Part shown: positions 6,321 through 46,001 of the stretch, one piece after another | Layout: the number at the start of each line of letters is the position of its first letter | How positions within the stretch are numbered: position 1 is the stretch's first letter | Origin: Escherichia coli | Lineage (GTDB): Bacteria; Pseudomonadota; Gammaproteobacteria; Enterobacterales; Enterobacteriaceae | Length of the DNA stretch: 64,000 nt | NCBI RefSeq assembly: GCF_044324875.1 | Contig: NZ_CP172185.1 | Strand: one strand, 5' to 3' | Position numbers and translations under genes: made by a program | The notes under the pieces: model-generated | Told to the model about the DNA's origin: nothing | Seen by the model: the letters and a program-made list of their open reading frames with translations, nothing else | Databases searched by the model: none

Positions 6321-6341
6321 CCCTTAAAAATTTTCAGTTTT
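6321..6341 (+). promoter_or_regulatory. conserved upstream motif shared with 17145-17166
   Basis: see paired feature; lies in 520-bp noncoding gap before RAQPRD gene. Confidence 0.3.
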
Positions 6342-6420
6342 ACAAATAGAGTTTATCGCTGACCGGCACACCTGCCTTCTTCATGCTGTACGCACCCACA
6401 GATTCTTAACGGAGGTGCGT

Positions 6421-10827: not shown

Positions 10828-11232
10828 GTGAAACGATTACTGTTCGTGATGAGTGTGGCACTGGTGCTGTCGGGCTGTGCCACCTCTAAAGAAGAGCTGC
10901 TGCCTGCCGGAGAGCAGACGATGCTGGAGCTCTGGCAGGGTAAAACCGCAGGTGGCGGTCAGCGGCATGCGCTGGCCGCCCGGGAAACGTTGCGCCGTCC
11001 CCTTACGGTAACGGAGCAGCAGGGGATGAACGCGGAGGCGTACAGCTACAGCCGGACGCAGGAAAGCGAAATCAGCCAGCAGTTTCCGCGTCTGCCGAAT
11101 CCCGACATGGTGATGTATGTGTTTCCGCATCTGGCCGGCGGTACGTCGCCGGTTCCGGGCTACAGCACGGTATTTCCTTTTTACAGCAGGACGCAGTATG
11201 CGCTGCCAGGTGAGCGTACGGAGGCTCTGTAA
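10828..11232 (+). CDS. conjugal transfer lipoprotein (TraV-like)
   Basis: lipobox LSGC at residues 15-18. Confidence 0.55.
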   Translation: MKRLLFVMSVALVLSGCATSKEELLPAGEQTMLELWQGKTAGGGQRHALAARETLRRPLTVTEQQGMNAEAYSYSRTQESEISQQFPRLPNPDMVMYVFPHLAGGTSPVPGYSTVFPFYSRTQYALPGERTEAL

Positions 11233-14081
11233 TGACATTCTCGCTTTTCAGACGCCGTGAGGAAAAAGGTACAGCAGAGACCAGGGAACGACCGGAAGCA
11301 GAAGCGGGGGCATCTTCATCGGCCTTTGTTCCGCCCTGTCCTCCGGGGGCACAGCCCCTGCGACGTCCGGGACAGATGACCCGTGATGCTGAGGCGGCGG
11401 TTTATCATGCCGGTCCGTCGGTTATTGATTTTCTGCCATGGGTGGAATATCTGGATGAGGAGCAGTGTCTGCTGCTTGACGACGGGGTGTCGGTGGGAGC
11501 GGTCTATTCGGTGACGCCGGCCGCAACGGAAGGGCGTACGGAAGAGCGCCTGGCGCAAATCAGGGACATGGTGGAGGATGCCCTGCAGGACAGTTTTGAT
11601 GAGTACGACACGCATCCCTGGGTGGTGCAGTTCTACTGTCAGGATGAAAATGATGTGGATGCGTACCTGGACTATCTGAAGGGGTATGTGAAACCCCACG
11701 CGCAGGGAACGGCATTCACGGAGGCCTGGCTGGGTGAAATGGCCCGCCATCTCAGGGGGATTGCCCGTCCTGAGGGACTGTTTACGGACACCCTGGTCAC
11801 CGGTCAGCCCTGGCGGGGACAGCAGCGACGAACCCGGATGGTGGTTTACCGTCGTATCGGGAAGAACAATAACGATCCGATGTCGCCGGTGGCGATGCTG
11901 AACCAGGTCTGCGACCGCGTGGTGTCCGCACTGGGTGGAGCCGGTATCCGCTGTACCCGGATGAACGGTCAGCAGGTGCACAGCTGGCTGCTGCGGTTAT
12001 TTAATCCGGCACCGGACTGGATTGCCCGTGAAGAGCTGTACCGGATGGCCTCACGGGTTGATCCGCGTGAGCGTGGTGATGATGTGATGCCGGTGATGAC
12101 GGATTTTGCCGAGAGCCTGTGGTTTAACCCGCCGTATTCCGATCCGGAGAACGGGGTGTGGTGGCTGGACGCCATGCCGCACTGTGCCGTGGTGGTGGAA
12201 AAGCTGCGTACGCCGCCGGAGCCGGGGACCATCACCGGAGAGATGCCCCGTGGGGAAAAAACGGTGAATGCGCTGATGGACACCTTTCCGGAGGGAACGG
12301 TGATGTGCATGACCATCGTGGTGCAGCCCCAGGACACCCTGGAGGACCGTTTCACCCGGCTGTCGAAAAATGCGGTGGGTGAGAACACGGAATCCATCCG
12401 GGCGCGTCAGGACGTGAAGGTGGTGAAGGAGCTGCTGGGGAACCGGCACAAGCTGTACCGGGCAGGGCTCACCTTTCTTCTGCGGGCAGAGGATATGGAC
12501 AGCCTGAAACGCCGGCGTGTGGAGCTGACCACGGTGCTTCTGGGGGCTGGTCTGCAGCCGGTGCGGCCTGAGTTTGACGTGGGGCCGCTGAACAGCTGGC
12601 TGCGGGCGCTGCCGATGTGTTTTGATCCGGATACGGACAAAAAGCAGTGGTACACGCGTCTGATGTGGGTACAGCACATGGCAGGATTGTTGCCGGTGAC
12701 CGGCCGGGATACGGGGACCGGACATCCGGGGTTCAGTTTTTTTAACCGGGGTGGTGATGTGCTGACTTTCGATCCGCTGAACAAGCTGGACCGTACCCAG
12801 AACGCGCATCTGCTGCTGTTCGGACCAACGGGGGCCGGTAAATCGGCCACGCTGTGTGCTTCACTGTCGCAGGTGATGGCAGTACACCGTCCCCGCCTGT
12901 TCATTGCCGAAGCGGGGAACTCGTTTGGTCTGCTGGCCGATTATTTTGAGAGTCTCGGGCTGTCGGTGAACAAAATCAGCGTCAGACCGGGAACCGGTGT
13001 GACCCTGCCGCCGTTTGCAGATGCGCATAAACTGGTTGAGGAAGGGCAGGATCTGCAGTGCGTGGATGAGCACTCACTGCCTGATATTGAGGATGAAGCC
13101 GGGGATGAAGGGGAGGATAAACGAGACATTCTGGGCGAGATGGAAATCTCAGCCAGGATGATGATCACCGGGGGGGACCCGAAAGAAGAGGCCGCGCTGA
13201 AGCGTGCGGACAGGGCGATGATCCGCGAGGCGCTGCTGATGGCCACACACCGGACATACCGTGAGGGGCGGCAGATGCTGCCGGAGGATTTGCAGTCCGC
13301 CCTGTGGGAGATCTCCCGTGACAGCAGCCGTAACGATGTGCGCAATGCAAAGGCGGCGGAGATGGCGGAGTCTCTGGGGATGTTCACCCAGAAGGGGAGT
13401 TTTGAGGCGGAGTTGTTCAACCGTGAGGGCGAACTGTGGCCGGAAGCGGATGTGACGCTGATTGACCTGGGGCATCTGGCCCGTGAGGGGTATGAGGCAC
13501 AGATGGCGCTGACCATGGTGTCGATGACCAACATGATCAATAACATTGCCGAACGTGATCAGTATCTGGGGCGTGACATCGTGTTTGCGGTGGATGAGGC
13601 GCATATCGTGACGGTCAATCCGCTGCTTTCGCCGTACATGACGAAGGTTGTGAAGATGTGGCGTAAGCTGGGAGCGTGGCTGTGGCTGGCGACACAGAAC
13701 CTGAAGGATTATCCGGATGTGTCGGAGAAGATGCTGAATATGGCGGAATGGTGGGTGTGTCTGACGATGCCACCGGAGGAAGTGAACAACATTGCACGCT
13801 TTAAATCACTGACGGAAGAGCAGAAAGCGGTGCTGATGTCGGCGAGTAAGCTGTCCGGCTGTTATACCGAAGGCGTGGTGCTGGCGAAACAGATTGAGGC
13901 GCTGTTTCGTGCGGTGCCGCCAAGTCTCTATCTGGCGCTGGGCATGACGGAGAAAGAAGAGAAGGCTGAGCGGCGCATGCTGATGAAGGAACATAACTGC
14001 AGCGAACTGGAGGCGGCGTTCCATGTGGCGCGTAAGCTGGACAGGCTGCGTGGTCTGTCGGCCATGGAGGCGGATGTATGA
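11232..14081 (+). CDS. traC: conjugative transfer ATPase (VirB4/TraC-like), ICE class
   Basis: 949 aa; Walker A GPTGAGKS; Walker B-like FAVDEAH. Confidence 0.8.
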   Translation: MTFSLFRRREEKGTAETRERPEAEAGASSSAFVPPCPPGAQPLRRPGQMTRDAEAAVYHAGPSVIDFLPWVEYLDEEQCLLLDDGVSVGAVYSVTPAATEGRTEERLAQIRDMVEDALQDSFDEYDTHPWVVQFYCQDENDVDAYLDYLKGYVKPHAQGTAFTEAWLGEMARHLRGIARPEGLFTDTLVTGQPWRGQQRRTRMVVYRRIGKNNNDPMSPVAMLNQVCDRVVSALGGAGIRCTRMNGQQVHSWLLRLFNPAPDWIAREELYRMASRVDPRERGDDVMPVMTDFAESLWFNPPYSDPENGVWWLDAMPHCAVVVEKLRTPPEPGTITGEMPRGEKTVNALMDTFPEGTVMCMTIVVQPQDTLEDRFTRLSKNAVGENTESIRARQDVKVVKELLGNRHKLYRAGLTFLLRAEDMDSLKRRRVELTTVLLGAGLQPVRPEFDVGPLNSWLRALPMCFDPDTDKKQWYTRLMWVQHMAGLLPVTGRDTGTGHPGFSFFNRGGDVLTFDPLNKLDRTQNAHLLLFGPTGAGKSATLCASLSQVMAVHRPRLFIAEAGNSFGLLADYFESLGLSVNKISVRPGTGVTLPPFADAHKLVEEGQDLQCVDEHSLPDIEDEAGDEGEDKRDILGEMEISARMMITGGDPKEEAALKRADRAMIREALLMATHRTYREGRQMLPEDLQSALWEISRDSSRNDVRNAKAAEMAESLGMFTQKGSFEAELFNREGELWPEADVTLIDLGHLAREGYEAQMALTMVSMTNMINNIAERDQYLGRDIVFAVDEAHIVTVNPLLSPYMTKVVKMWRKLGAWLWLATQNLKDYPDVSEKMLNMAEWWVCLTMPPEEVNNIARFKSLTEEQKAVLMSASKLSGCYTEGVVLAKQIEALFRAVPPSLYLALGMTEKEEKAERRMLMKEHNCSELEAAFHVARKLDRLRGLSAMEADV

Positions 14082-14464
14082 TGTGTCTGAAATACCCGAA
14101 ACCGGAGGTGATGACAGAGGTCATGCCCGGGGGCAGCGTGTTTTTTCTGCCGCCGCAGGGAAAACCGGGTGTTGCGGATCTGGCGCAACCGCATCTGCAG
14201 CGCCTGCGGTCACAGCTTGAACGCAGGCTGGGTACGCTGCATCGTGTGGTGTGTCAGCCCCAGCGGGTGGGGCAGAGCAGCAGTGTGGCCGTGACAGCAG
14301 AAGGGGCGTGTGGCGAGGTGCATCTTCTGCTGACAGTAGGGGGGCATGAGAGCTGGCCCTCTGAAGAGGAATACCGGCATCCGCGCTGGTATATCCAGGT
14401 GGTGGATGCGGCCGATCTGTTCTACCTGCTGCTCTGGCTGTGTGATGGCGGGCAGGAAGCGTGA
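14078..14464 (+). CDS. ICE hypothetical protein; last 62 bp duplicated downstream of iha
   Basis: start overlaps traC stop; C-terminus VVDAADLFYLLLWLCDGGQEA repeated at 16806-16870. Confidence 0.4.
   Translation: MMCLKYPKPEVMTEVMPGGSVFFLPPQGKPGVADLAQPHLQRLRSQLERRLGTLHRVVCQPQRVGQSSSVAVTAEGACGEVHLLLTVGGHESWPSEEEYRHPRWYIQVVDAADLFYLLLWLCDGGQEA
14399..14460. repeat. direct repeat copy 1 (62 bp) flanking iha insertion
   Basis: 59/62 nt identical to 16806-16867. Confidence 0.8.
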
Positions 14465-14553
14465 AGTAAAAATACTTCCACTGGCAAACTGCTCCAGTGG
14501 AAGTGTATGTAATGTTTTGTTGTTTATTTTAATTTCTTGTAAAACACAAACAC

Positions 14554-14570
14554 TAATTATTCTCATTATT
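14554..14570 (+). promoter_or_regulatory. candidate Fur box upstream of iha
   Basis: TAATTATTCTCATTATT matches about 13/17 of the core of consensus GATAATGATAATCATTATC; 50 bp upstream of ATG. Confidence 0.35.
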
Positions 14571-14619
14571 GTTTAGATTTGTGTATCTTTCGCCCGATTA
14601 ATATAATCGGAGAGAAGAT

Positions 14620-16707
14620 ATGCGAATAACCACTCTGGCTTCAGTAGCCATCCCTTGTCTCGGATTTTCAGTCAGCAGCATGGCTGCGGAAGATGTGATG
14701 ATAGTCACCGCATCCGGCTATGAAAAAAAATTAACCAGTGCAGCTGCGAGTGTTTCGGTGATCAGTCAGGAGGACTTGCGATCCAGCCAGTATCATGATC
14801 TTGGGGAGGCACTGAGATCCGTAGAGGGGGTGGATGTTGAAAGCGGTACGGGTAAAACCGGTGGACTGGAAATCAGCATCCGTGGAATGCCTGCCAGTTA
14901 TACGCTGATACTGATTGATGGTGTCCGTCAGGGCGGGAGCAGAGACGTAACCCCGAACGGTTTTTCTGCCATGAACACGGGGTTTATGCCACCTCTGGCC
15001 GCCATCGAACGTATTGAGATTATCAGGGGCCCCATGTCCACTCTGTACGGCTCTGATGCCATGGGGGGCGTGGTGAATATCATCACCAAAAAGAATGCAG
15101 ACAAATGGCATTCTTCAGTTAATGCCGGGCTGAACCTGCAGGAAAGTAACAAATGGGGGAACAGCAGCCAGTTTAATTTCTGGAGCAGCGGCCCCCTGGT
15201 GGATAATTCTCTCAGCCTGCAGGTACGTGGCAGCACGCAGCAGCGACAGGGCTCATCGGTCACATCACTGAGCGGCACCTCAGCCACGCGCATCCCTTAT
15301 CCAACAGAGTCACAGAATTATAATGCAGGTGCTCGTCTTGACTGGAAAGCAACGGACAAGGATATGTTCTGGCTTGATATGGATACTGCACGACAGCGTT
15401 ATGATAACCGGGACGGCCAGCTGGGCAGCCTTACTGGCGGTTATGATCGTACCCTGCGCTATGAACGTAATAAAATTTCGGCAGGTTATGATCATGCATT
15501 CACCTTCGGAACCTGGAAGTCATCCCTGAACTGGAATGAGACGGAAAATAAAGGCCGTCAGCTTGTACGCAGCGTACTGAAGCGTGATAAATGGGGACTT
15601 GCCGGCCAGCCGAGGGAGCTTAAGGAGTCGAATTTTATCCTGAATTCCTTACTGCTTGCACCTGTGGGTGAATCTCACCTGGTTACTGTCGGTGGTGAGT
15701 ACCAGAACTCATCCATGAAAGACGGGGTTGTTCTCACCAGTACAGGCGAAACCTTCCGGCAGAAAAGCTGGTCGGCATTTGTTGAGGATGAGTGGCATAT
15801 CACGGATGCGGTTGCACTGACTGTGGGCAGTCGTTATGAACATCATGAGGTGTTCGGAGGACACCTCAGTCCGCGGGCATATATGGTCTGGGATGTGGCT
15901 GATGAGTGGACGCTGAAAGGTGGGGTGACCACGGGATATAAGGCACCCGGCATGGGGCAGTTACATAAGGGGATCAGCGGTGTGTCCGGTCAGGGGCGTA
16001 CGAATCTTCTCGGTAACCCGGACCTGAAGCCGGAGGAGAGTGTCAGCTATGAAGCGGGCGTGTATTACGATAATCATGCCGGTCTGAACGCCAATATCAC
16101 GGGCTTTATGACAGAGTTCTCCAACAAGATCGTATCTTATTCTATTGATGATAATACCCGCAGCTATACAAACAGCGGAAAGGCCAGGACTCAGGGTGTG
16201 GAGTTTGCCGGCACACTGCCTCTGTGGTCAGAGGATGTGACGCTGTCTCTGAATTATACCTGGACGCAGAGTGAACAACGGGATGGGGATAATAAAGGTG
16301 CACCACTGAGTTACACCCCTGAGCATATGGTGAATGCGAAACTGAACTGGCAGATTACTGAAGATGTGTCATCATGGCTGGGTGCCCGTTACCGCGGGAA
16401 AACGCCACGTTTCACCCAGAATTATTCGTCACTCTCAGCTGTACAGAAGAAAGTGTATGATGAGAAAGGTGAATATCTGAAAGCCTGGACGGTACTGGAT
16501 GCGGGCATGTCGTGGAAAGTGACGGATGCACTGACGCTGAATGCAGCGGTGAATAATGTGCTTAACAAGGATTACAGTGACGTAAGTCTGTATCGTGCCG
16601 GCAGTGGTACGCTTTATGCGGGTGATTACTTCCAGACGGGGGCATCGACAACAGGTTATGTGATACCGGAGAGAAATTACTGGATGTCGCTGAGCTATCA
16701 GTTCTGA
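14620..16707 (+). CDS. iha: TonB-dependent outer-membrane siderophore receptor/adhesin, Iha/IrgA-like
   Basis: 695 aa; signal peptide; TonB box EDVMIVTAS; plug motif IEIIRGPMSTLYGSDAMGGVVNIITKK; C-terminal YQF; N-terminus matches recalled Iha sequence. Confidence 0.75.
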   Translation: MRITTLASVAIPCLGFSVSSMAAEDVMIVTASGYEKKLTSAAASVSVISQEDLRSSQYHDLGEALRSVEGVDVESGTGKTGGLEISIRGMPASYTLILIDGVRQGGSRDVTPNGFSAMNTGFMPPLAAIERIEIIRGPMSTLYGSDAMGGVVNIITKKNADKWHSSVNAGLNLQESNKWGNSSQFNFWSSGPLVDNSLSLQVRGSTQQRQGSSVTSLSGTSATRIPYPTESQNYNAGARLDWKATDKDMFWLDMDTARQRYDNRDGQLGSLTGGYDRTLRYERNKISAGYDHAFTFGTWKSSLNWNETENKGRQLVRSVLKRDKWGLAGQPRELKESNFILNSLLLAPVGESHLVTVGGEYQNSSMKDGVVLTSTGETFRQKSWSAFVEDEWHITDAVALTVGSRYEHHEVFGGHLSPRAYMVWDVADEWTLKGGVTTGYKAPGMGQLHKGISGVSGQGRTNLLGNPDLKPEESVSYEAGVYYDNHAGLNANITGFMTEFSNKIVSYSIDDNTRSYTNSGKARTQGVEFAGTLPLWSEDVTLSLNYTWTQSEQRDGDNKGAPLSYTPEHMVNAKLNWQITEDVSSWLGARYRGKTPRFTQNYSSLSAVQKKVYDEKGEYLKAWTVLDAGMSWKVTDALTLNAAVNNVLNKDYSDVSLYRAGSGTLYAGDYFQTGASTTGYVIPERNYWMSLSYQF

Positions 16708-16805
16708 TAACAACAAAACCGATATAACGCACAGTAAAATGTAAACATGCTGCTGCTGTCACTGCAGGCAGTGGCAGCAGCGTATAACCGCAGATGTTTG
16801 TCCAT

Positions 16806-16867
16806 GTGGTGGATGCGGTCGATCTGTTCTGTCTGCTGCTCTGGCTGTGTGATGGCGGGCAGGAAGC
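16806..16867. repeat. direct repeat copy 2 (62 bp) flanking iha insertion
   Basis: re-encodes VVDAVDLFCLLLWLCDGGQEA plus stop. Confidence 0.8.
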
Positions 16868-17144
16868 CTGAAAAAACTGCCGCTACTGGCAACTGTGTCG
16901 TGGTGGCATGTTACTGGCAGGTGGTTTACGGAGTATGGGCCCAATTCTGGCCTGCCGGAACATGCCCTTATAACCTTTAACACAGCGGTTACATAAAAAA
17001 CAATGTCTTTTGTGCACAGCAGTATTGTGGCTGAAAGTGAAATAAAAGCGCGATATTATACTGCTTCGCGTCCGGTTGTCATTATCATGGATAGTGCGTT
17101 ATGTTTATAAAGGCGTGACGGACGCTTAATTCTCACGCAACGCA

Positions 17145-17166
17145 CCCCTCTTAAATTTTCAGTTTC
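17145..17166 (+). promoter_or_regulatory. conserved upstream motif shared with 6321-6341
   Basis: CCCCTCTTAAATTTTCAGTTTC vs CCCTTAAAAATTTTCAGTTTT, each 80-100 bp upstream of an ICE operon start. Confidence 0.3.
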
Positions 17167-17244
17167 CGGTTTTGAATTTATTGCTGCTATTGGTGCTGCT
17201 TATGCGCACGCTGTAAGTCGGATATTGTCTGACGGAGGCGTACA

Positions 17245-17640
17245 ATGTACCGGATTTTCTGTTCCCTGTTTTTCCTGCCGCTGGCAGCGTCTGCCGGCAC
17301 AACAATTTATACCGATTCTCAGCACCTCCCCGTTAATCCTCCCGATGGTGTCAGGGTGGTTCTGCTGGATGCACCGGAGCAGCTTCAGACCCGCTTTTTT
17401 GGCACGTTGCCTGCTGATGCGGATAAGGCTGAAGCGGTGGTCAGGGCACGTATGCAGTCTCCCGAATGGCAGATGATGCAGGCGGAACTGGCTGCTCATT
17501 ACCGCGATGTGGCACATGCCTGGTCGCTGGGCGTGAAGAAATATCCTGCCGTGGTGTTTGATGACAGTGAGGTGGTTTACGGCATCACGGATGTGGTGGT
17601 GGCCGGGAAACTCCGTACTGAGGGAGGAGTTCAGCCATGA
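17245..17640 (+). CDS. ICE exported protein, function unknown
   Basis: signal peptide; GGAGG RBS. Confidence 0.45.
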   Translation: MYRIFCSLFFLPLAASAGTTIYTDSQHLPVNPPDGVRVVLLDAPEQLQTRFFGTLPADADKAEAVVRARMQSPEWQMMQAELAAHYRDVAHAWSLGVKKYPAVVFDDSEVVYGITDVVVAGKLRTEGGVQP

Positions 17641-23270: not shown

Positions 23271-23534
23271 ATGAAACCGAATATCCATCCTGAATACCGT
23301 ACTGTGGTGTTCCACGATACCAGTATCGATGAGTACTATAAAATTGGTTCGACCATCAAGACTGAACGTGTGATTGAGCTTGATGGTGTCACCTATCCGT
23401 ACGTAACTATTGACGTTTCCTCTAAGTCGCATCCTTTCTACACCGGCAAACTGAGAACTGTTGCTTCAGAAGGTAACGTGGCGCGCTTTAACCAGCGTTT
23501 CGGGCGTTTTGTTGACACCAAAAAAGGTGCCTGA
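23271..23534 (+). CDS. rpmE2: 50S ribosomal protein L31 type B (zinc-independent paralog)
   Basis: 87 aa [18 protein letters not shown]... lacking the Cys zinc motif; near-identical to recalled YkgM. Confidence 0.8.
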
Positions 23535-23575
23535 CCAGAAATTGATCACAGGCGCGCTTGATACGCAAAAGTATT
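23468..23575. repeat. direct repeat copy 1 (about 108 bp; 3' end of rpmE2 plus downstream)
   Basis: about 90 percent identical to 26863-26970. Confidence 0.75.
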
Positions 23576-23640
23576 ATTTGTATTATTTCTGATATTTTAT
23601 TTCAAAGGCGGTATTTACCGCCTTAATTAGTTTTATCCGT

Positions 23641-24813
23641 TTATTTATTTCCTTTTGAACGATTATGCGTAACGCAAAGCATTTCGCAATTATCAGGCTT
23701 ACTTTCACCCCCCTTACTCCATGCGGAAACATGGTCGGCTTCCATTTCTTTCAAAGCCCAGATTTTTGTTTTATTGGCATTATCTGAACTGGCGCAAAGG
23801 GGGCAGTTTGAAATACCTTGTTGCTCCGCTTTATCTGTTTGCCTTTTGTAGGCTTGTTTTTTAATTTTTTCATCAAAAAAGCGAATGTTTAATAAACGTT
23901 TATCAGATTGACCACCTAACACATATTCCCAGATGCCTTTAATGTTTTTTACACTATCATCCTGATATAATTTATTGATTTGCGTGGCTAATTCACCTGG
24001 ATTGTATGGTTTGTCTTTATAGGTTTCGTATAAACGCCCCCATTCCAGTCCGCACATTTCTTTTTTTACCTCGGTAAATGTGGTGTTAACCCAGTCAATC
24101 ACGCTATTGAAATAGGTTTTTAATTCCTTGATATTGTCATCATTACGATGGGCATTCATGTATTCGCTGATATTTCCTTTACTGACCCAGTTTAACGCAC
24201 ATTCTAAAATTTCCTGGCGTTTAACATTACCTTTGATGTAAGCACTCCATTTTTGCACATTTGAATTAGCAGAATTACTGAATTCTGCTTTTGCCAGTGT
24301 AACAAATTTGCCCGAATACACCGCATTCAATAATTCTTGTTCATTTAAAGGGACGCCAGTAATATTAATCGTTTTAAACCATTCTTTAATTTCGCTTTCT
24401 GTACCCTTACATTTGTAAATCAGCAAAGTGGTTTGTTTGATTTTCTCTTGTTGGTCTTGCGGTAAACTATGGAAATAGTATGGCGTGCCTTTATCATCTA
24501 TAATGGCGAATTTTCCGGTAACAAACCGCCCAATACTGGTAATGCGCTGCTGACCATCCAGTACTTCAAATGTATCTTCTGTATCTTTGTCAGGTTGATT
24601 AAAATAAATCAAACCGAGCGGATAACCTTTTAATACTGACTGGATAACTGCCACATCTTTCTTACCGTCTGCATAAATATAATTGCGTTGATATTCGGGC
24701 TGAATGGTAAGCTTTCCTGATAAACCAAACAAGCCTTTTCCCTCCAGTTCATTATAAACAAATCCATCGCACAATTGTTCAACGGTGATTGATGTATCTA
24801 ATTGTGTTTTCAT
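23641..24813 (-). CDS. DUF262 (ParB-like, DGQQR) plus C-terminal HNH nuclease
   Basis: motifs QPEYQR and DGQQR near N-terminus; HNH-like HVSAWSKGG...[10 protein letters not shown] at C-terminus; 15 bp after methyltransferase stop. Confidence 0.6.
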
Positions 24814-24828
24814 TTTTCACTTTTCCTT

Positions 24829-25983
24829 TTATTTATTTTGTGGATTGATGTGTTTAATAAGAATGCGTCCATAAGTACGTTTGCCGTTAATAACTGTACA
24901 CCCACCCCTATCTTCAGAATGTTGAGAATAATTTAAAATCTCCAGTATCTCTTCGGGAGTTGATGCTCGTGTATTACCACTTGCTTGCCAAATAATTTCA
25001 AACTGTTCAGGACAATATTTATCCAAAAAGCTAATTGGCACGCCCATAACTCCTGCATAATCGCTAGGAATACCGTTAGTTCTGGGCACTTCAATAGCAT
25101 CATAATTGTCATATGCCTGATAAGCGTTAGGGTCATTGATAATTTGTTTGTTGTATTTTAAATTATCCGCCATAGACATTAGCTGTAAAGATTGATGCCG
25201 TCTGCCGTGTTCAATATTGGTAAACCAACAAGAGTTACCCAAACGAGTATAATCACCTATATATCCTAGACGCTCCGCTTTTTTCTTATCAGCTTCCCTC
25301 ACATCAGCACCTTGTGGTACAGCAAAAACCATATCATTACCATTCCCAGTAGCACCCAACCAAATTTTATTTCCTTTGATAAGTGGAAAAATCTCTTTAT
25401 AAGTAATAGCATTCATATTACCGATAACGGCAAACTGCTTTTTACCTTCCATAATCCATGCCATAAATTCGCGAAACAGCGAAAAAGGCGGATTGGTGAT
25501 AATTATGTCGCTTTCATCGCGTAGAGCTTTGATTTCATCACTACGAAAATCGCCATCACCCTGCAGGTATTGCCATTTAATATCTTTAAAATCAATTACA
25601 CCATCGTGATTACTGTCTTCGGTTAGCGTGTAAATTTTGCCATGTTTCTGGCTTTTATCACTGTCGTATTGTTCACTTTCGCTTTCAAATAATGATGGCT
25701 GATAAGCTGTGTTTAACTGTTTGGATTGATGAGCGTAGCTGGTACTGATGAGCTTCTTTAATCCAAGTCGTTCAAAGTTTTGTGCAAAATAAAGTGTGAA
25801 ATTGCTCCACTCGGGGTCATCACATGGTAAGAGAATGGTTTTGCCACGAAATACGTCTTTATTGAAATCAAGATAGGCATTCATCTCTTTTTCAATATCA
25901 TGGTATTGGGTGTAAAATTCGTCATTTTTGGCTTTTTTTGCAGCAGAAAGATTACTGTTTTTGGCAGAAATATTCTTTGACAT
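24829..25983 (-). CDS. N6-adenine DNA methyltransferase (NPPF motif)
   Basis: catalytic motif IITNPPF; GGAGG RBS 7 nt upstream. Confidence 0.6.
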   Translation of the reverse strand: MSKNISAKNSNLSAAKKAKNDEFYTQYHDIEKEMNAYLDFNKDVFRGKTILLPCDDPEWSNFTLYFAQNFERLGLKKLISTSYAHQSKQLNTAYQPSLFESESEQYDSDKSQKHGKIYTLTEDSNHDGVIDFKDIKWQYLQGDGDFRSDEIKALRDESDIIITNPPFSLFREFMAWIMEGKKQFAVIGNMNAITYKEIFPLIKGNKIWLGATGNGNDMVFAVPQGADVREADKKKAERLGYIGDYTRLGNSCWFTNIEHGRRHQSLQLMSMADNLKYNKQIINDPNAYQAYDNYDAIEVPRTNGIPSDYAGVMGVPISFLDKYCPEQFEIIWQASGNTRASTPEEILEILNYSQHSEDRGGCTVINGKRTYGRILIKHINPQNK

Positions 25984-26033
25984 TTCAAACCTCCAAAACA
26001 GTATTGAAGGTTTGAAAAAACGGGGTTACATTA

Positions 26034-26152
26034 TGCTTGTTGCTTGTTGCTTGTTGCTTGTTGCTTGTTGCTTGTTGCTTGTTGCTTGTTGCTTGTTGCT
26101 TGTTGCTTGTTGCTTGTTGCTTGTTGCTTGTTGCTTGTTGCTTGTTGCTTGT
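26034..26152. repeat. heptanucleotide microsatellite (TGCTTGT)x17
   Basis: 17 perfect tandem units, 119 bp, beginning 50 bp upstream of the methyltransferase ATG. Confidence 0.9.
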
Positions 26153-26211
26153 ATTAGCATTGGATTTTCCCTTTTACTTGTCAAGTATTTTCTTTTGGAT
26201 TCTGAAGTTTT

Positions 26212-26538
26212 TCACGTATTCGTAACGATGGCATCAAGTGCAGCGATAATTTCATTTCTGGATGAAGAAATATTACATATAAAATCTTTGCTGTTTATTT
26301 TTTTTGCATCCAGGAACGTGAGCGCCGGGGTGAACACATAGAAATCCGATGTCTCTATTTTAACTAATGGCGTTATCCTTTTCTTTTTAAGCTCAATATC
26401 ATTTTTTGATACCAGAGGCACGACTATCCTTGTGGTTAAATCGTCAAAATAATCATTCTGGAGAATAAGGTAGAACGGCCAGAGTTTATTCGTTCTGACC
26501 GATGGATTGCGGTATACATCAAATTGCTTTGGCATCAC
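26212..26538 (-). CDS. CcdB-like toxin candidate
   Basis: 108 aa; QFDVYRN...FYLILQNDYF...PL pattern resembles CcdB; 4-nt overlap with upstream antitoxin-like ORF. Confidence 0.4.
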   Translation of the reverse strand: MMPKQFDVYRNPSVRTNKLWPFYLILQNDYFDDLTTRIVVPLVSKNDIELKKKRITPLVKIETSDFYVFTPALTFLDAKKINSKDFICNISSSRNEIIAALDAIVTNT

Positions 26539-26783
26539 AGACTCCCAAAGAAATCGTCATCCGTCAACATTCCTGCTTTTGCCATAAATTTATTCATAGT
26601 GTGCATATCCTGTTTTTCTTCTTCCCGCTCTACAGTTTTGGCCTCGATAGCCTGTGCCAGAAGGTTATCCAGTGTTGCCGACAGGTTCATGTCCATACTC
26701 CGGGCTTTATCAACCAGTGAGGCCGTCAGGTAAACGTTGGTGCTTCTTTTGTTGCTGTTACGAGTGGTGGCAACTGTATTCAT
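26535..26783 (-). CDS. CcdA-like antitoxin candidate
   Basis: 82 aa from ATG 26783 (AGGAG RBS); table ORF 26535-26879 trimmed. Confidence 0.4.
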   Translation of the reverse strand: MNTVATTRNSNKRSTNVYLTASLVDKARSMDMNLSATLDNLLAQAIEAKTVEREEEKQDMHTMNKFMAKAGMLTDDDFFGSL

Positions 26784-26862
26784 TATGCTTGCTCCTGTGC
26801 GCAGATGTATGCGCATAATTATGATGGGGGAAGGATAAACAATCAAGTGTGATCCTTCCGTT

Positions 26863-26970
26863 AGAAGGTAATGTGGCATGCTTTAACCAGCGTTTCGGGT
26901 GTTTTGTTGACACCAAAAAAGGTGCCTGATCAGAAATCGATCACAGGCGCTATTGATATGCAAAAGTATT
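26863..26970. repeat. direct repeat copy 2 (about 108 bp)
   Basis: re-encodes ...[21 protein letters not shown] plus stop and downstream flank. Confidence 0.75.
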
Positions 26971-27053
26971 GCTTGAGTGTCTGAGGTCGGTTATTTTATG
27001 TTTCACAAGTAAAGAAGCATTTAAAAAGAAACTCACAGTCCATATTCCTTCAT

Positions 27054-28944: not shown

Positions 28945-29187
28945 TGTCGCTTCGGCGACCACCAATGTTCCATGAGGCCTGTGAGGAACGCCTTCGGGTG
29001 GCCCACGTCGCTCCGGCGACCACCAATGCTCCATCTGACCTGTGAGGAGCGCCTTCGGGTGGTCAGTTTTACACCTCCGTAGCCTGAAAGGAGCTGTGCG
29101 TGCTGATGGGATATGTTCCCGGAAGTACGGGTAAATCTGCACACCTTTGCGAGCAGATGTCACCACGGTTTACGTGATGATGAAGGC
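28945..29187. repeat. 244-bp direct repeat copy A with internal 48-bp tandem sub-repeat
   Basis: about 95 percent identical to 31740-31983. Confidence 0.8.
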
Positions 29188-29921: not shown

Positions 29922-30839
29922 ATGTCCCGTAAATCGTCACGTTCCAAAGTTGAAGTCTTTCGCAAGTCATTCATCTCACTTGCCCGTGATTGTGGTGGCA
30001 GCTACGCAACAACCGCTGACAGAATGCGAATTGCCAGATACTTTTTGAATTATTTGCAAGTAAACGGTATCAAACTTCGTCAGACGGGCAGTATTAAGAC
30101 GAGGCATATTTCTGGTTATCTTCTCAGCAGGAAAGAGCAGGGGATCTCTCACCGCACAATTCAGAATGAACGGGCAGTTATGCGCGCAATTCTAGAGAAA
30201 GATGGTCGCCTTAAAATAGCGGATCCGTCCAATCCTTTATTGAGCAATGAAGCTCTTGGACTCAGGGATACATGCCGTGATGGTAAAAAGATACCACTCT
30301 CACAGGATGAGTTTAATAAAGCCTTCAGTAAGGTTGAAAAAAATAATCCCGGTGTTGCTGCAGTAATGCAAATTTCTTATGTTCTTGGACTGAGGACAAA
30401 AGAAGCTGTTCAGTCTTGTAAATCAGTTAACTCGTGGCTACGTGAACTTGATTCAGGGCATGATTCTCTTCTCGTTGTTTTTGGGACGAAAGGTGGAAGG
30501 CCCAGAGATACAACGATCATTAATCGTGATGCAGTGAAACATGCGCTCATTTATGCAAAAAACATTATGGATAAACAGAATGGTAAACTTATCGATTGCC
30601 CCAATATTAAACAGGCTATAAACGTATATCGTTACCATGTAAGAAAAGCTGGTTTATCTGGAGTGAAGGCACCACATAGTATGCGTTATCATTTTTCGCA
30701 GGAAGCAAGGCAGTTTTATCGAAAAAGTGGATATGGAGATAAAGAAATTTACGCAAGGGTTTCCATGGACCTTGGTCATGGTGACGGAAGAGGGCGTTAT
30801 GTAAAACAGGTCTACTTTAAAGGCGATGATGAGAGCTGA
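29922..30839 (+). CDS. tyrosine-recombinase-like protein (integrase family)
   Basis: C-terminal HSMRYHFS...LGHGDGRGRY resembles Box II HxLRH...LGH...Y; AGGGGG RBS. Confidence 0.45.
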   Translation: MSRKSSRSKVEVFRKSFISLARDCGGSYATTADRMRIARYFLNYLQVNGIKLRQTGSIKTRHISGYLLSRKEQGISHRTIQNERAVMRAILEKDGRLKIADPSNPLLSNEALGLRDTCRDGKKIPLSQDEFNKAFSKVEKNNPGVAAVMQISYVLGLRTKEAVQSCKSVNSWLRELDSGHDSLLVVFGTKGGRPRDTTIINRDAVKHALIYAKNIMDKQNGKLIDCPNIKQAINVYRYHVRKAGLSGVKAPHSMRYHFSQEARQFYRKSGYGDKEIYARVSMDLGHGDGRGRYVKQVYFKGDDES

Positions 30840-30842: not shown

Positions 30843-31583
30843 TTAAAATGAATCCGGAGGATATGTGTTTTTCGCGAACTTATTAATTTCTGTAATAAGA
30901 ATTTCTGATGCACGATTACACATGCTCTCATTAAAGTATCCTATATGGCATTCATGGATGCGGCAATTTAGTTTTCTGGATAGCCATCTGTTTGCCTCGT
31001 TACGGGATATATTTGTTTTTTGCTGATAGCTGTCAAAAAGTTTACGCACTTGTGCTCTGAGTATTCTCAAATTTTCTTTAGCTGGAGTACCTAATGGTCT
31101 CCCTGAATTTTTATGACATCCAACCCATGCATTGCATGGGCTGCAAATCCAGTAATATTTGTTTTCTGTAGTGGGTGTCGTGGAAAATGGCATAAGTGCA
31201 CCTTTTCTGAGTTGTGCCTTATTACCACAGTAAGTGCAGATTACAATTGGACGAACATCTGCAATATTCAGTGCTGCATAAGTAAGACGTTCATTTTTCA
31301 TCATGTTTCGTTTTCCACAGTCAGTGAGAATATGCTTTATTGTGTCTAATTCTTCTCGGAGTATTTTTGAACGGACGCCAGTTCGATAACGCTGTTGAAA
31401 GTAGAGCTCAATATGGCGTAGTTTTATACTATTTATTGATTTTATCTGTATATTGGATTCTTTAAGAAATGAAGCAAATCTTCTGGCTCTCCCCATATAT
31501 ACCAGTATGTCTTCTGGTGTCGGGGCGCATGCTTTAGCTATTTTGATTAGCTCATCTTTTAATTTTTTGTATTTCGATTTCAT
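30843..31583 (-). CDS. integrase-N-terminal-like domain plus Cys-rich zinc-ribbon protein
   Basis: CTYCGN...CSPCNAWVGCH and CRIHECH clusters; convergent with 29922-30839. Confidence 0.4.
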   Translation of the reverse strand: MKSKYKKLKDELIKIAKACAPTPEDILVYMGRARRFASFLKESNIQIKSINSIKLRHIELYFQQRYRTGVRSKILREELDTIKHILTDCGKRNMMKNERLTYAALNIADVRPIVICTYCGNKAQLRKGALMPFSTTPTTENKYYWICSPCNAWVGCHKNSGRPLGTPAKENLRILRAQVRKLFDSYQQKTNISRNEANRWLSRKLNCRIHECHIGYFNESMCNRASEILITEINKFAKNTYPPDSF

Positions 31584-31739: not shown

Positions 31740-31983
31740 TGTCGCTTCGGCGACCACCAATGTTCCATGTGGCCTGTGAGGAACGCCTTCGGGTGGCCCA
31801 CGTCGCTCCGGCGACCACCAATGCTTCATCTGACCTGTGAGGAGCGCCTTCGGGTGGTCAGTTTTACACCTCCTGAGCCTGAAAGGAGCTGTGCGTGCTG
31901 AAGGGATATGTTCCCGGAAGTACGGGCAAATCTGCGCACCTTTGAGAGCAGATGTCACTGCGGTTTTCCGTGATGATGAAGGC
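31740..31983. repeat. 244-bp direct repeat copy B
   Basis: pairs with 28945-29187. Confidence 0.8.
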
Positions 31984-33331: not shown

Positions 33332-33884
33332 CTGTCTTTGTTCATGGCTTTTCAACAGACCGTTATGCTTTCGCCACCACATGGTAAGGCGGGTCTGATT
33401 TTACTGTTAACCGTACGGTTCACTCTCATACCGTACGGTGGGAGTGAACCCTTTTCATTAAGGACACTCTCATGAAAACGAAAACTTCTGCACCTGCTGT
33501 ATATGTTGGTACCTGGGCTAAATACAACAATGGCAGCATAGAAGGATGCTGGTTTAATGATTTAACCGTTTTTGAAACTGAAAGCGATTTTTTATCTGCG
33601 GCCCGTAAGTTTCATCAGGATGAAAAAGATCCTGAATTTATGTACCAGGATTATGAAAACTTTCCTTCGGGAATGGCTTCAGTGCAAAATGGCATCTGAA
33701 TCGATCGCAGTTTGGCATTCGAATCGATCATGATTTGGCATCCATCTCCGATCACAGTTTGGCATCACAATCGATCACGATTTGGCATGCTTCCGATCAT
33801 TGATTGGCATCCTGCCAGTCACTCCGGGAATTAACTCTTTTCACCACAGTCTCCATTGCCGTGTTTAAACCAGTGGAGACGTCA

Positions 33885-35450
33885 ATGTCCAGAAAGAGAA
33901 AATCCAGGAGCACTATGGAAACCTGTTTTAAGATCCTTCAGCTCAAGTTCGACAAGAAGCTGACTAACCGTTGTATCGGACTGACGTTACACATCAGCGC
34001 CTCAACCGTTTTTGAGGTTCTTGCCCGCTTCAAAGCCTCTTCTCTGTCATGGCCATTACCTGCTGATATATCCCATGACACGCTGGAGAAACTCATTTTT
34101 CCGCCCAAAGACACCTTTGCATCAGAGCTTGTAATGCCTGACATGTTGTACTTCGATACGGAAATGAGAAAACCAGGTGTGACGCGGCAACTGTTGTGGA
34201 TGGAATACAAGGCACAGGCGGGTAACAAAGCGATGGGATACTCGCACTTCTGCCGTTGCTACCGGGAGTGGAAAAAAACGCGACGTCTCTCCATGCGCCA
34301 GGAGCATCGTGCCGGCGAAAAGCTTTTTATCGACTTCTGTGGTCCTACGGTTCCTGTTATTAATCCGGACACCGGTGAGATACGCCGCGTGGCAATCTTC
34401 GTGGCCGTAATGGGGGCGTCCAACTATACCTACGTTGAAGCGTGCGAAGGTCAGGACATGATGTCATGGTTAAATGCCCACAGCCGTTGCCTGACCTTCC
34501 TGGGCGGCGTACCGAAGCTGCTCATCCCCGATAACCTCAGAAGCGCAGTGAAAAAGGCCGATCGATATGAGCCTGTCATCAACGACAGTTATCAGGCACT
34601 GGCTGAGCACTATGGCACGGTTATCATCCCGGCCCGACCACGCAAACCTAAAGATAAACCAAAAGCAGAAAACGGCGTCCTCATCGTTGAACGATGGCTT
34701 CTTGCCCGCATCCGTAATGAAACCTTCCACACGCTCAGGGCGCTGAATGCGCGCCTTAGGGAGTTACTGACAGACATGAATAACCGGCCAATGAAGGGGT
34801 ACGGCAATCAAACCCGTGCAGAACGCTTCCGCATACTGGATGCGCCAGCACTCTCTCCGCTGCCTCTGGCACCTTATGAATACACGGAATACAAAGCTGT
34901 GAAGGTTGGCCCTGACTACCACGTTGAATATGCCCGTCACTGGTACTCCGTTCCACACGAACTGGTCGGTCAGCGTCTGTCACTGAAGGCGGGGCAGTCG
35001 GTGGTACAGCTCTGGCACAAGGGGCAGTGTGTGGCGCAACATCCGCGCAGCACACATGAATATAAACACACAACCAATCCGCTTCACATGCCAGAGCGCC
35101 ACCGGCAGCACGGGACATGGACACCGGAACGCCTGATCGAGCAGGGAAAACGTACGGGCCCGTCCACAGGCCGGGTGGTTGAATCCATGCTGAAGGCAAA
35201 ACCCCATCCGGAACTGGCTTATCGTGCAGTTCTGGGGCTGCTGGCACTTCAGAAAAAATACGGCCCGGAACGGCTGGAAAAGGCCTGTTACGTTGCCCTG
35301 CACTATAACGCCCCTGACAGACGCTTTATCGACAATCTGCTGCGTCACCATCGGGAGAACCTGGAGCTTCCATTATCCCGCCAGGGCGAACAACATCCGG
35401 CATATGCTTCAGAGCATGAAAACCTGCGTGGTCCGGGCTACTACCACTGA
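33885..35450 (+). CDS. istA: IS21-family transposase IstA
   Basis: 521 aa, N-terminal HTH and DDE-like core; GGAGA RBS. Confidence 0.7.
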   Translation: MSRKRKSRSTMETCFKILQLKFDKKLTNRCIGLTLHISASTVFEVLARFKASSLSWPLPADISHDTLEKLIFPPKDTFASELVMPDMLYFDTEMRKPGVTRQLLWMEYKAQAGNKAMGYSHFCRCYREWKKTRRLSMRQEHRAGEKLFIDFCGPTVPVINPDTGEIRRVAIFVAVMGASNYTYVEACEGQDMMSWLNAHSRCLTFLGGVPKLLIPDNLRSAVKKADRYEPVINDSYQALAEHYGTVIIPARPRKPKDKPKAENGVLIVERWLLARIRNETFHTLRALNARLRELLTDMNNRPMKGYGNQTRAERFRILDAPALSPLPLAPYEYTEYKAVKVGPDYHVEYARHWYSVPHELVGQRLSLKAGQSVVQLWHKGQCVAQHPRSTHEYKHTTNPLHMPERHRQHGTWTPERLIEQGKRTGPSTGRVVESMLKAKPHPELAYRAVLGLLALQKKYGPERLEKACYVALHYNAPDRRFIDNLLRHHRENLELPLSRQGEQHPAYASEHENLRGPGYYH

Positions 35451-35466
35451 CAGAAGGAACAACAGT

Positions 35467-36222
35467 ATGAGTGATAACCTGTTAAACAAACTGACCCAAC
35501 TGAAACTCCCGGCGATGGCCGGGAGCCTGATACGGCAGCGGGAAACGCCTCAGACCTACGACGAACTGTCGTTCGAGGAAAGGCTGACGCTGCTGGTTGA
35601 TGACGAGCTTCTGAGCAGGGAAAACAGCCGTGTGGCACGGTTGAGAAAAAATGCCGGCCTGAAATACCAGGCAACACCGGAAGGGCTGCGCTATCCGGCC
35701 TCAAGAGGTCTGCGGGCTGAACAGATGAGAGAACTGCTGAACGGCCACTACATAACCCACAGGAAAAACCTGCTGATAACCGGTCCGACAGGATGTGGCA
35801 AGAGCTGGATAGCCAATGCGCTGGGCGAACAGGCATGTCGACAGAAACACAGCGTCCGGTACTGTAGAACCGGGCGATTACTGGAACAACTGGCTCAGGG
35901 ACGTGTTGATGGCAGCTGGCTGAAATATCTGAAACAGTTGCAAAAAATACAGGTTCTAATCCTGGACGATCTGGGGCTGGAACAGTTAAGTAACGCCCAG
36001 TGTAATGACCTTCTGGAGCTCATAGAGGATCGTTACGGACAAAGCAGCACGATAGTGGTAAGCCAGTTCCCGGTAGATAAATGGCATGGTCTGATGGAGA
36101 ACCCAACAACAGCAGATGCCATCCTGGACAGACTGGTACATAACTCACACCGAGTGGTCCTTCAGGGAGAGTCACTGAGGAAAAATCCCCCGGTAGTGGA
36201 AAGCAGCGAAAAAACGCGTTAA
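35467..36222 (+). CDS. istB: IS21-family helper ATPase IstB
   Basis: Walker A GPTGCGKS, Walker B ILDDLG. Confidence 0.75.
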   Translation: MSDNLLNKLTQLKLPAMAGSLIRQRETPQTYDELSFEERLTLLVDDELLSRENSRVARLRKNAGLKYQATPEGLRYPASRGLRAEQMRELLNGHYITHRKNLLITGPTGCGKSWIANALGEQACRQKHSVRYCRTGRLLEQLAQGRVDGSWLKYLKQLQKIQVLILDDLGLEQLSNAQCNDLLELIEDRYGQSSTIVVSQFPVDKWHGLMENPTTADAILDRLVHNSHRVVLQGESLRKNPPVVESSEKTR

Positions 36223-39196: not shown

Positions 39197-39221
39197 GCGC
39201 CACATTTTGTGGCGCTTTTTT
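39197..39221 (+). terminator. rho-independent terminator
   Basis: GCGCCACA tttt GTGGCGC followed by T6. Confidence 0.55.
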
Positions 39222-39268
39222 AATAAATCAGTGATGGCAGAGTTGTTATTGTAAATAACTCTCCGTGT

Positions 39269-42184: not shown

Positions 42185-42186
42185 GA

Positions 42187-45993: not shown

Positions 45994-46001
45994 GGGATAA
46001 C

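Follow-up and report, generated by a model that had tools for sequence, protein, structure and literature searches.

The iha locus considered here raises the question of how a segment bracketed by two copies of a gene's 3' end came to lie between the transfer genes of an ICE, and whether these repeats are the marks of a site-specific integration event. The locus forms part of a 64,000-nucleotide stretch of an Escherichia coli genome (contig NZ_CP172185.1 of assembly GCF_044324875.1), which is referred to in its entirety as the window. The reading that we favor, with a probability of roughly 0.6, is that iha is a self-contained cargo of an ICE hotspot and that the repeat behind it is an old remnant of the neighboring gene, orf128, reshaped by homologous recombination.

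Judged by its gene content and surroundings, the host element is an ICE of the ICEEc2/PFGI-1/pKLC102 type located at tRNA-Phe. The TIGR037xx ICE genes are present, and in order, around the TraC/VirB4-like ATPase, TraD and TraG genes (RefSeq annotation of a 99.6%-identical ICE), and in VTB96815v, to which the corresponding segment of the window is 99.4% identical, a tyrosine recombinase gene is followed by tRNA-Phe and then by the chromosomal yqgA/speC genes. Carriers of the ICE are mostly poultry isolates. The orf128 gene, the 3' end of which forms repeat copy 1 (Table 1), begins just before the TraC-like ATPase gene ends, and its homologues are found directly 3' of TraC in most of the Enterobacterales ICE loci surveyed; its protein gave no family match in Pfam and NCBIfam profile searches.

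Table 1. Features of the iha locus and of the rpmE2 island, numbered from the first nucleotide of the window.
Feature	Position	Strand	Remarks
TraC/VirB4-like conjugative transfer ATPase gene	11232..14081	+	ORF; RefSeq annotation of near-identical ICE in VTB96815v
orf128 (target gene)	14078..14464	+	128-aa ORF; conserved ICE gene of unknown function
Repeat copy 1	14389..14465	+	functional 3' end of orf128; equal to empty-site sequence up to 14460
Left junction segment (P')	14461..14494	+	departs from empty site from G14461 onward (alignment)
Terminator-like hairpin	14472..14506	+	13-bp stem, then U-rich tail; directly after orf128
Fur-box-like sequence	14552..14570	.	14/19 matches to GATAATGATAATCATTATC; 50-68 nt upstream of iha start codon
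iha, TonB-dependent siderophore receptor/adhesin	14620..16707	+	695-aa ORF
GC-rich hairpin	16752..16781	+	13 bp, no following T-run; downstream of iha
Repeat copy 2	16796..16872	+	non-coding remnant of orf128 3' end
Native orf128-TIGR03757 spacer	16872..17244	+	intact downstream of insert
Promoter-like box	17153..17186	+	AAATTTTCAGTTT-N10-RTTTATYGCTG; upstream of TIGR03757 operon
TIGR03757-family ICE gene	17245..17640	+	opens next transfer gene block; 126.5 bits, cut-off 73.2
rpmE2 repeat copy 1	23461..23580	+	last 75 nt of rpmE2 (gene 23272-23535) + 45 nt downstream
rpmE2 island	23581..26855	-	3.3 kb, GC 0.38; HNH-family endonuclease, EcoRI-family adenine methyltransferase, CcdB/CcdA (CcdB profile match weak; names from ORFs and RefSeq names under the match)
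rpmE2 repeat copy 2	26856..26975	+	remnant of rpmE2 3' end, then native downstream DNA

As had been proposed in a preliminary description of the locus, the 2.3-kb interval between the repeats carries iha alone, together with a Fur-box-like sequence. Iha matches the NCBIfam equivalog NF010012 over residues 1-695 (model positions 1-696 of 696) with 1539 bits against a cut-off of 924, and is the product of the sole long ORF in 14465-16795, the remaining listed ORFs being inside or overlapping iha in other frames or on other strands. The GC content of the insert is 0.50, falling to 0.30 over the 155 nt that precede iha, compared with 0.60 in the ICE backbone. Fur-box scores of at least 14/19 occur at only 4 positions in the window, and on reading the sequences the Fur-box-like stretch is visibly conserved upstream of other iha alleles; the predicted box suggests that this allele may be under the control of Fur. 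The hairpin following orf128 has a folding energy of -19.7 kcal/mol (z = -4.2; none of 200 shuffles folds as well) and was missed by a simple terminator scan. Together with the second hairpin downstream of iha, it may insulate transcription.

A repeat search of the window recovered the 77-nt direct repeat (91% identity), including the previously described 62-nt core (14399-14460 and 16806-16867) with its three mismatches, namely C/T at 14412/16819 and AC/GT at 14424-25/16831-32. A degenerate pattern fitting both copies matches only these two sites in the 64 kb, and so the repeat is not a common dispersed motif. In addition, the pattern gave no hits in 100 shuffles and the repeat brackets exactly the DNA that is missing from 12 related ICEs, which leaves a negligible probability that the similarity is due to chance or to a widespread motif unconnected with the insertion. 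Translated in the register of copy 1, copy 2 reads MFVHVVDAVDLFCLLLWLCDGGQEA followed by a stop; the suggestion that it re-encodes the last 21 residues and the stop is therefore correct for the stop and for 19 of the residues, not for all 21.

The segment is an insertion, since 12 E. coli genomes contain a ca. 99% identical ICE without iha in which there is one repeat copy, the same orf128 protein (WP_000968513.1) and an unbroken 373-nt spacer. This is the uninterrupted junction that the preliminary description had proposed to look for, and none of these iha-less ICEs retains both repeat copies. Their left backbone is 0.35% divergent from that of the window, and the spacer downstream of the insert matches those of 5CRE51 and E19035 in length and shows 2 differences as far as 17294. 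A second empty lineage has a spacer of 265 nt. The view that the insertion splits a tightly coupled transfer operon has to be abandoned, because the empty site already contains the 373-nt (or 265-nt) spacer, because this spacer holds a promoter-like box, and because 25 related ICEs hold ca. 1-7 kb of different cargo in the same gap. The sole other copy of the box in the window (6328-6361) lies upstream of the RAQPRD operon, a transfer operon, and the box at 17153-17186 is conserved in lineage-B and LR-31 loci.

The variability of this gap became evident from a scan of genome contigs with the TraC C-terminus, by which 80 loci were located (no relatives were detected when an orf128 alignment was used instead). 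Between the orf128 stop and the TIGR03757 gene there are 1.0-7.4 kb in 25 non-E. coli Enterobacterales ICEs, versus 265-374 nt in empty E. coli ICEs, and in several more the gap exceeds 8 kb or is unresolved. Other E. coli lineages have DUF1187 or AraC-family genes in the same gap, and in a lineage-B ICE, the backbone of which is 84% identical, a different iha allele is inserted 165 nt past the stop codon of orf128, without a repeat. With an interval that is short in some ICEs and filled with unrelated cargo in others, and with the flanking core genes intact (the orf128 protein is unchanged and the spacer and TIGR03757 gene are retained), the orf128-TIGR03757 gap is a cargo (variable-region) hotspot across related ICEs, of which we found no previous description. 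The iha segment is thus an ordinary ICE cargo insertion, albeit one with an informative recombination footprint. Because orf128 is intact and the downstream genes keep their native upstream region, the putatively iron-regulated receptor/adhesin has been added with the transfer genes and their upstream regions undisturbed.

The footprint itself consists of two unequal parts. The left part of copy 2 (16796-16832) is decayed, with 6 differences from the functional end, while from 16833 onward the sequence equals that of the empty-type ICE; the clean identity block between the two copies is consequently 35 nt long (14426-14460). At the left junction, P' bears a weak resemblance to the start of the native spacer (TGAAG.AAA...ACTGGCAA.CTG, as judged by eye and without statistics), given which the duplicated unit may have been ca. 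110 nt. Of the codons that differ between copy 1 and copy 2, 6 are changed non-synonymously and 1 synonymously, and the 6 non-synonymous changes fall within or just before a motif that shows 5 synonymous and no non-synonymous differences between the functional alleles of two ICE lineages. Every base specific to copy 2 alters an amino acid in a conserved motif, which gives these bases the appearance of decay and not of a donor allele. Copy 2 is accordingly best read as a decaying pseudogene remnant of the orf128 end and not as a working integration site.

Also significant is the observation that the transition to empty-type sequence within or behind the remnant is not fixed. Between the window and 5CRE51, there are 6 differences in 16796-16832 and 2 in 16833-17294 (Fisher p = 2.8e-6), followed by a divergence of ca. 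4%. The ICE in TUM9803 has the same left junction as the window and an iha gene that is only 1.2% different; its remnant has undergone a 12-nt deletion and an insertion of 4 nt, and the divergence of its spacer extends to 17325. In the metagenome contig L099, a TUM-type remnant is followed by a transition to the R-type spacer in the interval 16873-16903. The change to empty-type sequence thus occurs at 16832/16833 in the window, at 16873-16903 in L099 and at 17325-17338 in TUM9803, and the derived bases at 16798, 16800, 16805 and 16819 are common to all three. The identical core between the repeats is 35 nt in the window and is confined to a 15-nt block in TUM9803 and L099. As far as these three remnant variants go, the near-perfect 62-nt form of the repeat is lineage-specific, and the clean right part of copy 2 is probably secondary. 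One left junction combined with three different switch points points to homologous-recombination tracts and not to a fixed crossover.

A different origin of the same pattern would be a recent Campbell-type insertion, in which an iha circle with a diverged orf128 3' end entered by a single homologous crossover in 14426-14460. This would produce the observed B-O-P' / P-O-B' arrangement, copy 1 being equal to the empty site up to 14460 and copy 2 from 16833, and the rpmE2 repeats (see below) show the same complementary pattern; furthermore, 35 nt of identity are within the range usable by RecA. However, TUM9803 and L099 have the same left junction and derived bases with other switch points, so that the window represents one of a nested series and not the primary junction, and on this ground the integration of a single circle was dropped as the source of the chimeric copies. 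The amino-acid-changing character of the copy-2-specific bases also argues against it, as does the failure to find a donor junction in complete E. coli genomes or in the metagenome scan, which likewise contained no intact orf128 allele with these bases. A recent insertion of this kind is consequently considered improbable.

The sequence of events that we favor starts from a self-contained iha module, bounded by two hairpins and equipped with a Fur-box promoter region of its own. An old acquisition event would have left behind, downstream of iha, a defunct remnant of the orf128 3' end native to the ICE, and the left part of this remnant, free of coding constraint, would then have decayed. Later, a tract from an empty-type ICE would have overwritten the right part of the remnant and the spacer through homologous recombination between ICE variants. 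As the leftward extension of such a tract is limited to where homology lasts, it would end inside the remnant, which would give rise to the 35-nt identity block and the 62-nt near-perfect repeat. Later recombination provides no explanation for the first creation of the 77-110-nt duplication. With regard to direction, empty ICEs may be descended from iha-bearing ones through a deletion between the repeats, or the change may have run the other way.

Alternatively, the repeats might be the attL and attR sites of a small module targeting the orf128 3' end by site-specific integration, through a tyrosine recombinase that acted in trans or was module-borne and has since been lost, and the rpmE2 island would have been acquired likewise. 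An intact gene end with a displaced, decaying 3' remnant is in fact the classic footprint of integrase islands such as e14 and phage 21 in icd and the tRNA-gene islands, which are integrase-borne elements that enter the 3' end of a gene and bring a replacement end. In keeping with this explanation, the 15-nt block TGTGTGATGGCGGGC is preserved in every remnant variant (n = 3) and could be a core site, and an accessory tyrosine integrase (29922-30839; PF12835 and PF12834) is present in the cargo region of the ICE and could act in trans. Moreover, two islands with matching architecture are present in one ICE: as noted in the preliminary description, the iha arrangement matches that of the rpmE2 island, an AT-rich insert absent from the close relatives VTB96815v and 5CRE51 and surrounded by a 120-nt repeat of a gene 3' end (88% identity). 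The occurrence of this intact-end, displaced-remnant layout twice hints at a common process. (A further insert, at 33683-36321, was rejected as a third example, being an ordinary IS21-family element.)

The further proposal that one integration mechanism recurs at both islands is not sustained. No recombinase gene is found in 14465-16795 or in the rpmE2 island among the ORFs and RefSeq names, and the iha and rpmE2 repeats have no common core (local score of 8 versus 8.3 for the null). Hallmarks of a transposon or insertion sequence are also lacking: the repeat is imperfect and 77 nt long, the two ends of the module are not matched by an inverted repeat, and a transposase is absent. A crossover common to all carriers is contradicted by the switch points, which vary among lineages, and when the orf128-end remnant was sought in 25 + 4 other cargo-filled hotspots, the scores were equal to those of controls, so that a repeat of this kind accompanies none of the other cargoes surveyed there. 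In lineage-B ICEs, the rpmE2 island proper is present at 96-97% identity and lacks the repeat arms. Finally, among 5,426 complete E. coli genomes, in which rare circles are seldom assembled, none of the 1,624 matching records covered an attP-type, contiguous donor (P-O-P') junction, and the 23-mer of the copy-2 left arm was present in just two metagenome contigs, both integrated and iha-linked. On balance, site-specific integration is regarded as unlikely, and the iha insertion does not reveal a new integration mechanism.

More speculative is a homology-guided 'plug-in' route, in which recombinase-less modules carrying ca. 100 nt of the 3' end of a backbone gene would enter by a single crossover and could loop out again, perhaps assisted by a product of the ICE, for example its accessory PF12835 integrase or its Rpn-family nuclease. 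We doubt that this route operates; were it to do so, it would allow ICEEc2-type ICEs to gain and shed cargo and would account for long imperfect direct repeats at several sites (iha and the rpmE2 island).

Traces of the hotspot extend to other iha loci. The iha loci of O157 and ST131 retain a 97-nt fossil of the ICE spacer, and a third iha allele is still trailed by TIGR03757/TIGR03756 pseudogenes, which suggests that several chromosomal iha loci originated here. The ICE spacer fossil is absent from the iha locus of a pO113-like plasmid, and the notion that all iha alleles derive from the hotspot was rejected on that account. The present locus places iha, a widely typed virulence marker of E. 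coli, on an element that is intact, potentially self-transmissible and frequent among poultry isolates. The definition of the hotspot could guide the annotation of PFGI-1/ICEEc2-type elements, and the nested recombination endpoints would reflect ICE variants exchanging cargo by homologous recombination.

Compared with known systems, the element resembles ICEEc2 of the avian E. coli strain BEN374 and the PAPI-1/pKLC102/PFGI-1-type ICEs (cited in PMC6761156 and PMC11537424) in its ordered TIGR037xx set, PFGI-1-class PilL2, type IVb pilus with shufflon, TraI relaxase and tyrosine integrase adjoining tRNA-Phe; the cargo of ICEEc2 differs from that of ICEKp2, according to PMC6761156. The gene itself belongs to the same NF010012 equivalog family as the iha genes of the OI-43/48 tellurite-adherence island of O157:H7, the LAA and LPA islands and plasmid pO113 (PMC6920203, PMC3064760), with a Fur-box-like sequence in the same place, and iron/Fur regulation, catecholate siderophore uptake and adherence have been established for other alleles (PMC6920203, PMC3064760). 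The allele in the window is divergent (ca. 86% nucleotide identity to the O157/ST131 allele), lying beyond the 91-94% identity among the named subtypes (PMC6920203). Unlike the O157 and ST131 loci, where only the 97-nt fossil is left, it is situated within an intact ICE.

As with e14, phage 21 and the tRNA-gene islands, the gene at the insertion point is intact and a 3' remnant is displaced to the far end of the insert; in contrast to such elements, the iha module was found without an integrase, a fixed crossover, a core common to the second island or an excised form. A further parallel is offered by ICE variable-region hotspots such as HS1-HS5 in the SXT/R391 ICEs. The present hotspot differs from these in belonging to another ICE family (PFGI-1/pKLC102/ICEEc2 type) and in that one cargo keeps a duplicated, decaying gene-end remnant, which the other 29 filled hotspots surveyed do not. 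Like the SXT/R391 hotspots, it occupies a fixed intergenic position between transfer genes and receives varied cargo with the core genes undisturbed, and, as in ICEs of that type, the elements concerned are mosaic through recombination between relatives.

The window from position 1 to about 58,000 is an ICE of the PFGI-1/pKLC102/ICEEc2 type of E. coli, ending in a tyrosine integrase gene that adjoins tRNA-Phe. Positions 1-21805 align at 99.6% with the close relative VTB96815v, the RefSeq annotation of which lists TIGR037xx ICE genes, TraD, a TraC-like ATPase and TraG, as well as a type IVb pilus with shufflon, the TraI relaxase, the integrase and tRNA-Phe. Within this element, iha is a true cargo insertion in a variable-region hotspot, the interval between orf128 (the ICE gene that follows TraC) and the TIGR03757 gene. 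An insertion had been proposed in the preliminary description, with alignment to ICEs lacking iha as the check, and this alignment supports it: the same ICE without iha is present in 12 complete E. coli genomes (5CRE51 and APEC E19035 among them), in all of which the orf128 protein is identical, the repeat is single and 373 nt of native spacer precede TIGR03757. A single copy, with a spacer of 265 nt, is also found in a second ICE lineage (lineage B; 84% identical; FDAARGOS_1300), and the ICEs without iha thus carry one copy rather than the pair. At this position iha occurs in 23 genomes, 22 of the window type and strain TUM9803, most of them from poultry. Elsewhere in the window, 33683-36321 is an IS21-family insertion (IstA-like, 548 aa; IstB-like, 332 aa; multiple terminal repeats) that neither VTB96815v nor 5CRE51 has, and an 8.4-kb variable region (39220-47640), differing from both strains, contains the pentanucleotide tract (GTTGC)x29.6 at 44281-44428 (98% purity).

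The iha module is bracketed by a direct repeat of 77 nt (14389-14465, copy 1; 16796-16872, copy 2) with 91% identity in a repeat search of the window. The 62-nt core with 3 mismatches described previously was recovered (2 matches in the window, 0 in 100 shuffles); copy 2 re-encodes the stop codon and 19 of the last 21 residues of orf128, rather than all 21 as had been stated. Also confirmed were iha as the sole gene of the interval (1539 bits, cut-off 924) and a Fur-box-like sequence at 14552-14570 (14/19 consensus matches). The GC content is 0.50 in the insert versus 0.60 in the backbone. Directly after orf128 lies a hairpin with a U-rich tail (14472-14506; -19.7 kcal/mol, z = -4.2), and another follows downstream of iha; both were brought in by the module, that at 14472-14506 being a strong one.

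Features of the iha and rpmE2 inserts and of related loci (window positions unless a locus is named)
Feature	Position	Basis or content
TraC ATPase	11232-14081	ORF; RefSeq annotation of relative
orf128, 128 aa, no family match	14078-14464	ORF; family search
iha	14620-16707	ORF; NF010012 match
TIGR03757 gene	17245-17640	ORF; family match
rpmE2 island, 3.3 kb	23581-26855	HNH-family endonuclease, EcoRI-family adenine methyltransferase, CcdAB
rpmE2-end repeat arms	23461-23580 and 26856-26975	120 nt, 88%
97-nt spacer fossil	L012 4772-4868 (O157:H7 F6321); L013 4772-4868 (ST131 strain 5506)	versus L001 4526-4621

Among 80 ICE loci retrieved with the TraC C-terminus as query (one genome per species), most Enterobacterales loci have an orf128 homologue as the gene next to TraC. 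The distance from its stop to TIGR03757 is 1.0-7.4 kb in the 25 loci with both genes placeable, TIGR03757 lies beyond the 8 kb reach in several others, and DUF1187 and AraC-family genes occupy the same interval in other E. coli lineages. The native spacer holds a box, AAATTTTCAGTTT-N10-RTTTATYGCTG, at 17153-17186, the sole other window copy of which (6328-6361) lies upstream of the RAQPRD transfer genes. Because the box is shared only with the RAQPRD block and is kept in other ICE lineages, the TIGR03757 block probably has its own start signal, untouched by the insert. With this box retained and the site a cargo hotspot, the suggestion that iha splits a tightly coupled operon is not supported. 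The box itself is a candidate binding site or promoter for an activator of ICE transfer genes. In cargo-filled hotspots, 25 of them foreign and 4 from E. coli, local alignment found no remnant of the hotspot's own orf128 end: the scores, 9-14, were no different from those of controls, whereas the window scored 61 and TUM9803 21.5.

Relative to the empty ICE (without iha), copy 1 is identical to 14460 and divergent afterwards, while copy 2 has 6 differences in 16796-16832 and none from 16833 onward. Such complementary divergence would be left by a recent single-crossover insertion, which is nevertheless distinctly improbable in view of the different switch points in TUM9803 and metagenome contig L099 and of the pseudogene-like changes in copy 2. 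A first reading, one reciprocal crossover between the ICE and a circular donor, was dropped on the substitution pattern, the mosaic right flank and the other switch points. The codon differences specific to copy 2, of which 6 are non-synonymous and 1 is synonymous, are located in, or just before, the motif WYIQVVDAADLFYLLLWL, which has 5 synonymous and 0 non-synonymous differences between the functional alleles of two ICE lineages; judged by this excess, copy 2 is, in its left part, a pseudogene in decay and did not come in as an allele of a functional gene. Compared with 5CRE51, the window differs at 6/37 positions, then at 2/462 (Fisher p = 2.8e-6), then at ~4%. The left junction of the window and its derived bases at four positions (16798, 16800, 16805, 16819) recur in TUM9803 and L099. 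In TUM9803, iha is 1.2% different, the remnant (copy 2) shows a deletion of 12 nt and an insertion of 4 nt, and the spacer is divergent up to 17325; L099 has a degenerate remnant of the TUM9803 type, and its change to the common spacer falls within 16873-16903. A single origin and three nested endpoints fit homologous-recombination tracts from an empty ICE that enter from the right and overwrite the right part of the remnant, ending inside it because homology with the empty ICE stops there. Given the nested endpoints and tract limits, the window's clean 35-nt identity block is most likely secondary. At the TraC gene 3' end (13817-13997), the window has 8 clustered differences from 5CRE51 and MS1679, and MS1679 has the 5CRE51-type haplotype there despite carrying iha, which is further evidence, on the left flank, of short recombination tracts. 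We favor, at a probability of about 0.6, a repeat that is a relic of acquisition, with a first duplication of 77-110 nt, partly restored by recombination.

The iha module contains no recombinase gene and no terminal inverted repeats, and the predicted donor junction was found in 0 of 1,624 matching records from complete E. coli genomes. That the repeats are an att pair made by an integrase is rather unlikely, with a module devoid of recombinase and iha and rpmE2 repeats that have no sequence in common (score 8 versus a null of 8.3), but with the accessory tyrosine integrase encoded by the ICE at 29922-30839 (PF12835 + PF12834), action in trans retains a low probability. A 227-nt direct repeat (28945-29171 and 31740-31966; 96%), each arm with a 61-nt unit present 1.9 times, brackets a 2.8-kb segment with this integrase and a zinc-finger-type protein (30843-31583, minus strand); the segment is present in all three close ICEs and may be a module able to excise or invert. 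The parallel drawn previously to the rpmE2 island of the same ICE is real: the arrangement is alike, including the complementary pattern. The iha repeat gives no support to a dedicated recurring mechanism of integration, neither insert containing a recombinase gene and the two repeats having no common core. VTB96815v and 5CRE51 lack the rpmE2 island. Lineage-B ICEs (L101, L102) have the island proper, 96-97% identical, between other flanks, beside an IS66 fragment and with no repeat arms. As the repeats differ and the island exists without arms, one recombinase with one core for both islands appears unlikely; the two may still share a process, for instance an insertion that made a long duplication, the arms of which then decayed in a complementary manner and were homogenised from their outer sides. 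At 26034-26152, a short way upstream of the start of the methyltransferase gene (minus strand, 25983), lies a perfect run of a heptanucleotide, (TGCTTGT)x17; its copy number differs between the window and SCU-171 (shifted blast hits), and it may act as a phase-variable switch of the restriction-modification genes.

In the orf128-TIGR03757 spacer, lineage-B ICEs (2013C-3033, also STEC2018-553) carry another iha allele, which lies 165 nt past the orf128 stop and has no repeat, and the O157:H7 and ST131 iha loci match this allele at 94%. Immediately upstream of iha, the latter two keep 97 nt of ICE spacer at 73-74% identity (E = 4e-13 and 6e-14), and the similarity ends at the exact ICE insertion point (intact lineage-B ICE, L010), which suggests that these island copies descend from ICE-borne iha. 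The iha copy of one pO113-like plasmid begins right at the module boundary, with no spacer fossil. In LR-31, XDL and many others, a third allele precedes a small ORF, behind which lie TIGR03757/TIGR03756 pseudogenes; this is a different cargo combination in the same hotspot, within a decayed ICE fragment widespread in E. coli. For this ORF (L002 6640-6940, L094 7505-7756), the corresponding match in one genome (H209) lies over an annotated thioredoxin-domain protein. The ICE hotspot context of iha is not mentioned in PMC6920203 or PMC3064760; the places known from these two papers are OI-43/48, the LAA and LPA islands and pO113, and the named iha subtypes are 91-94% alike.
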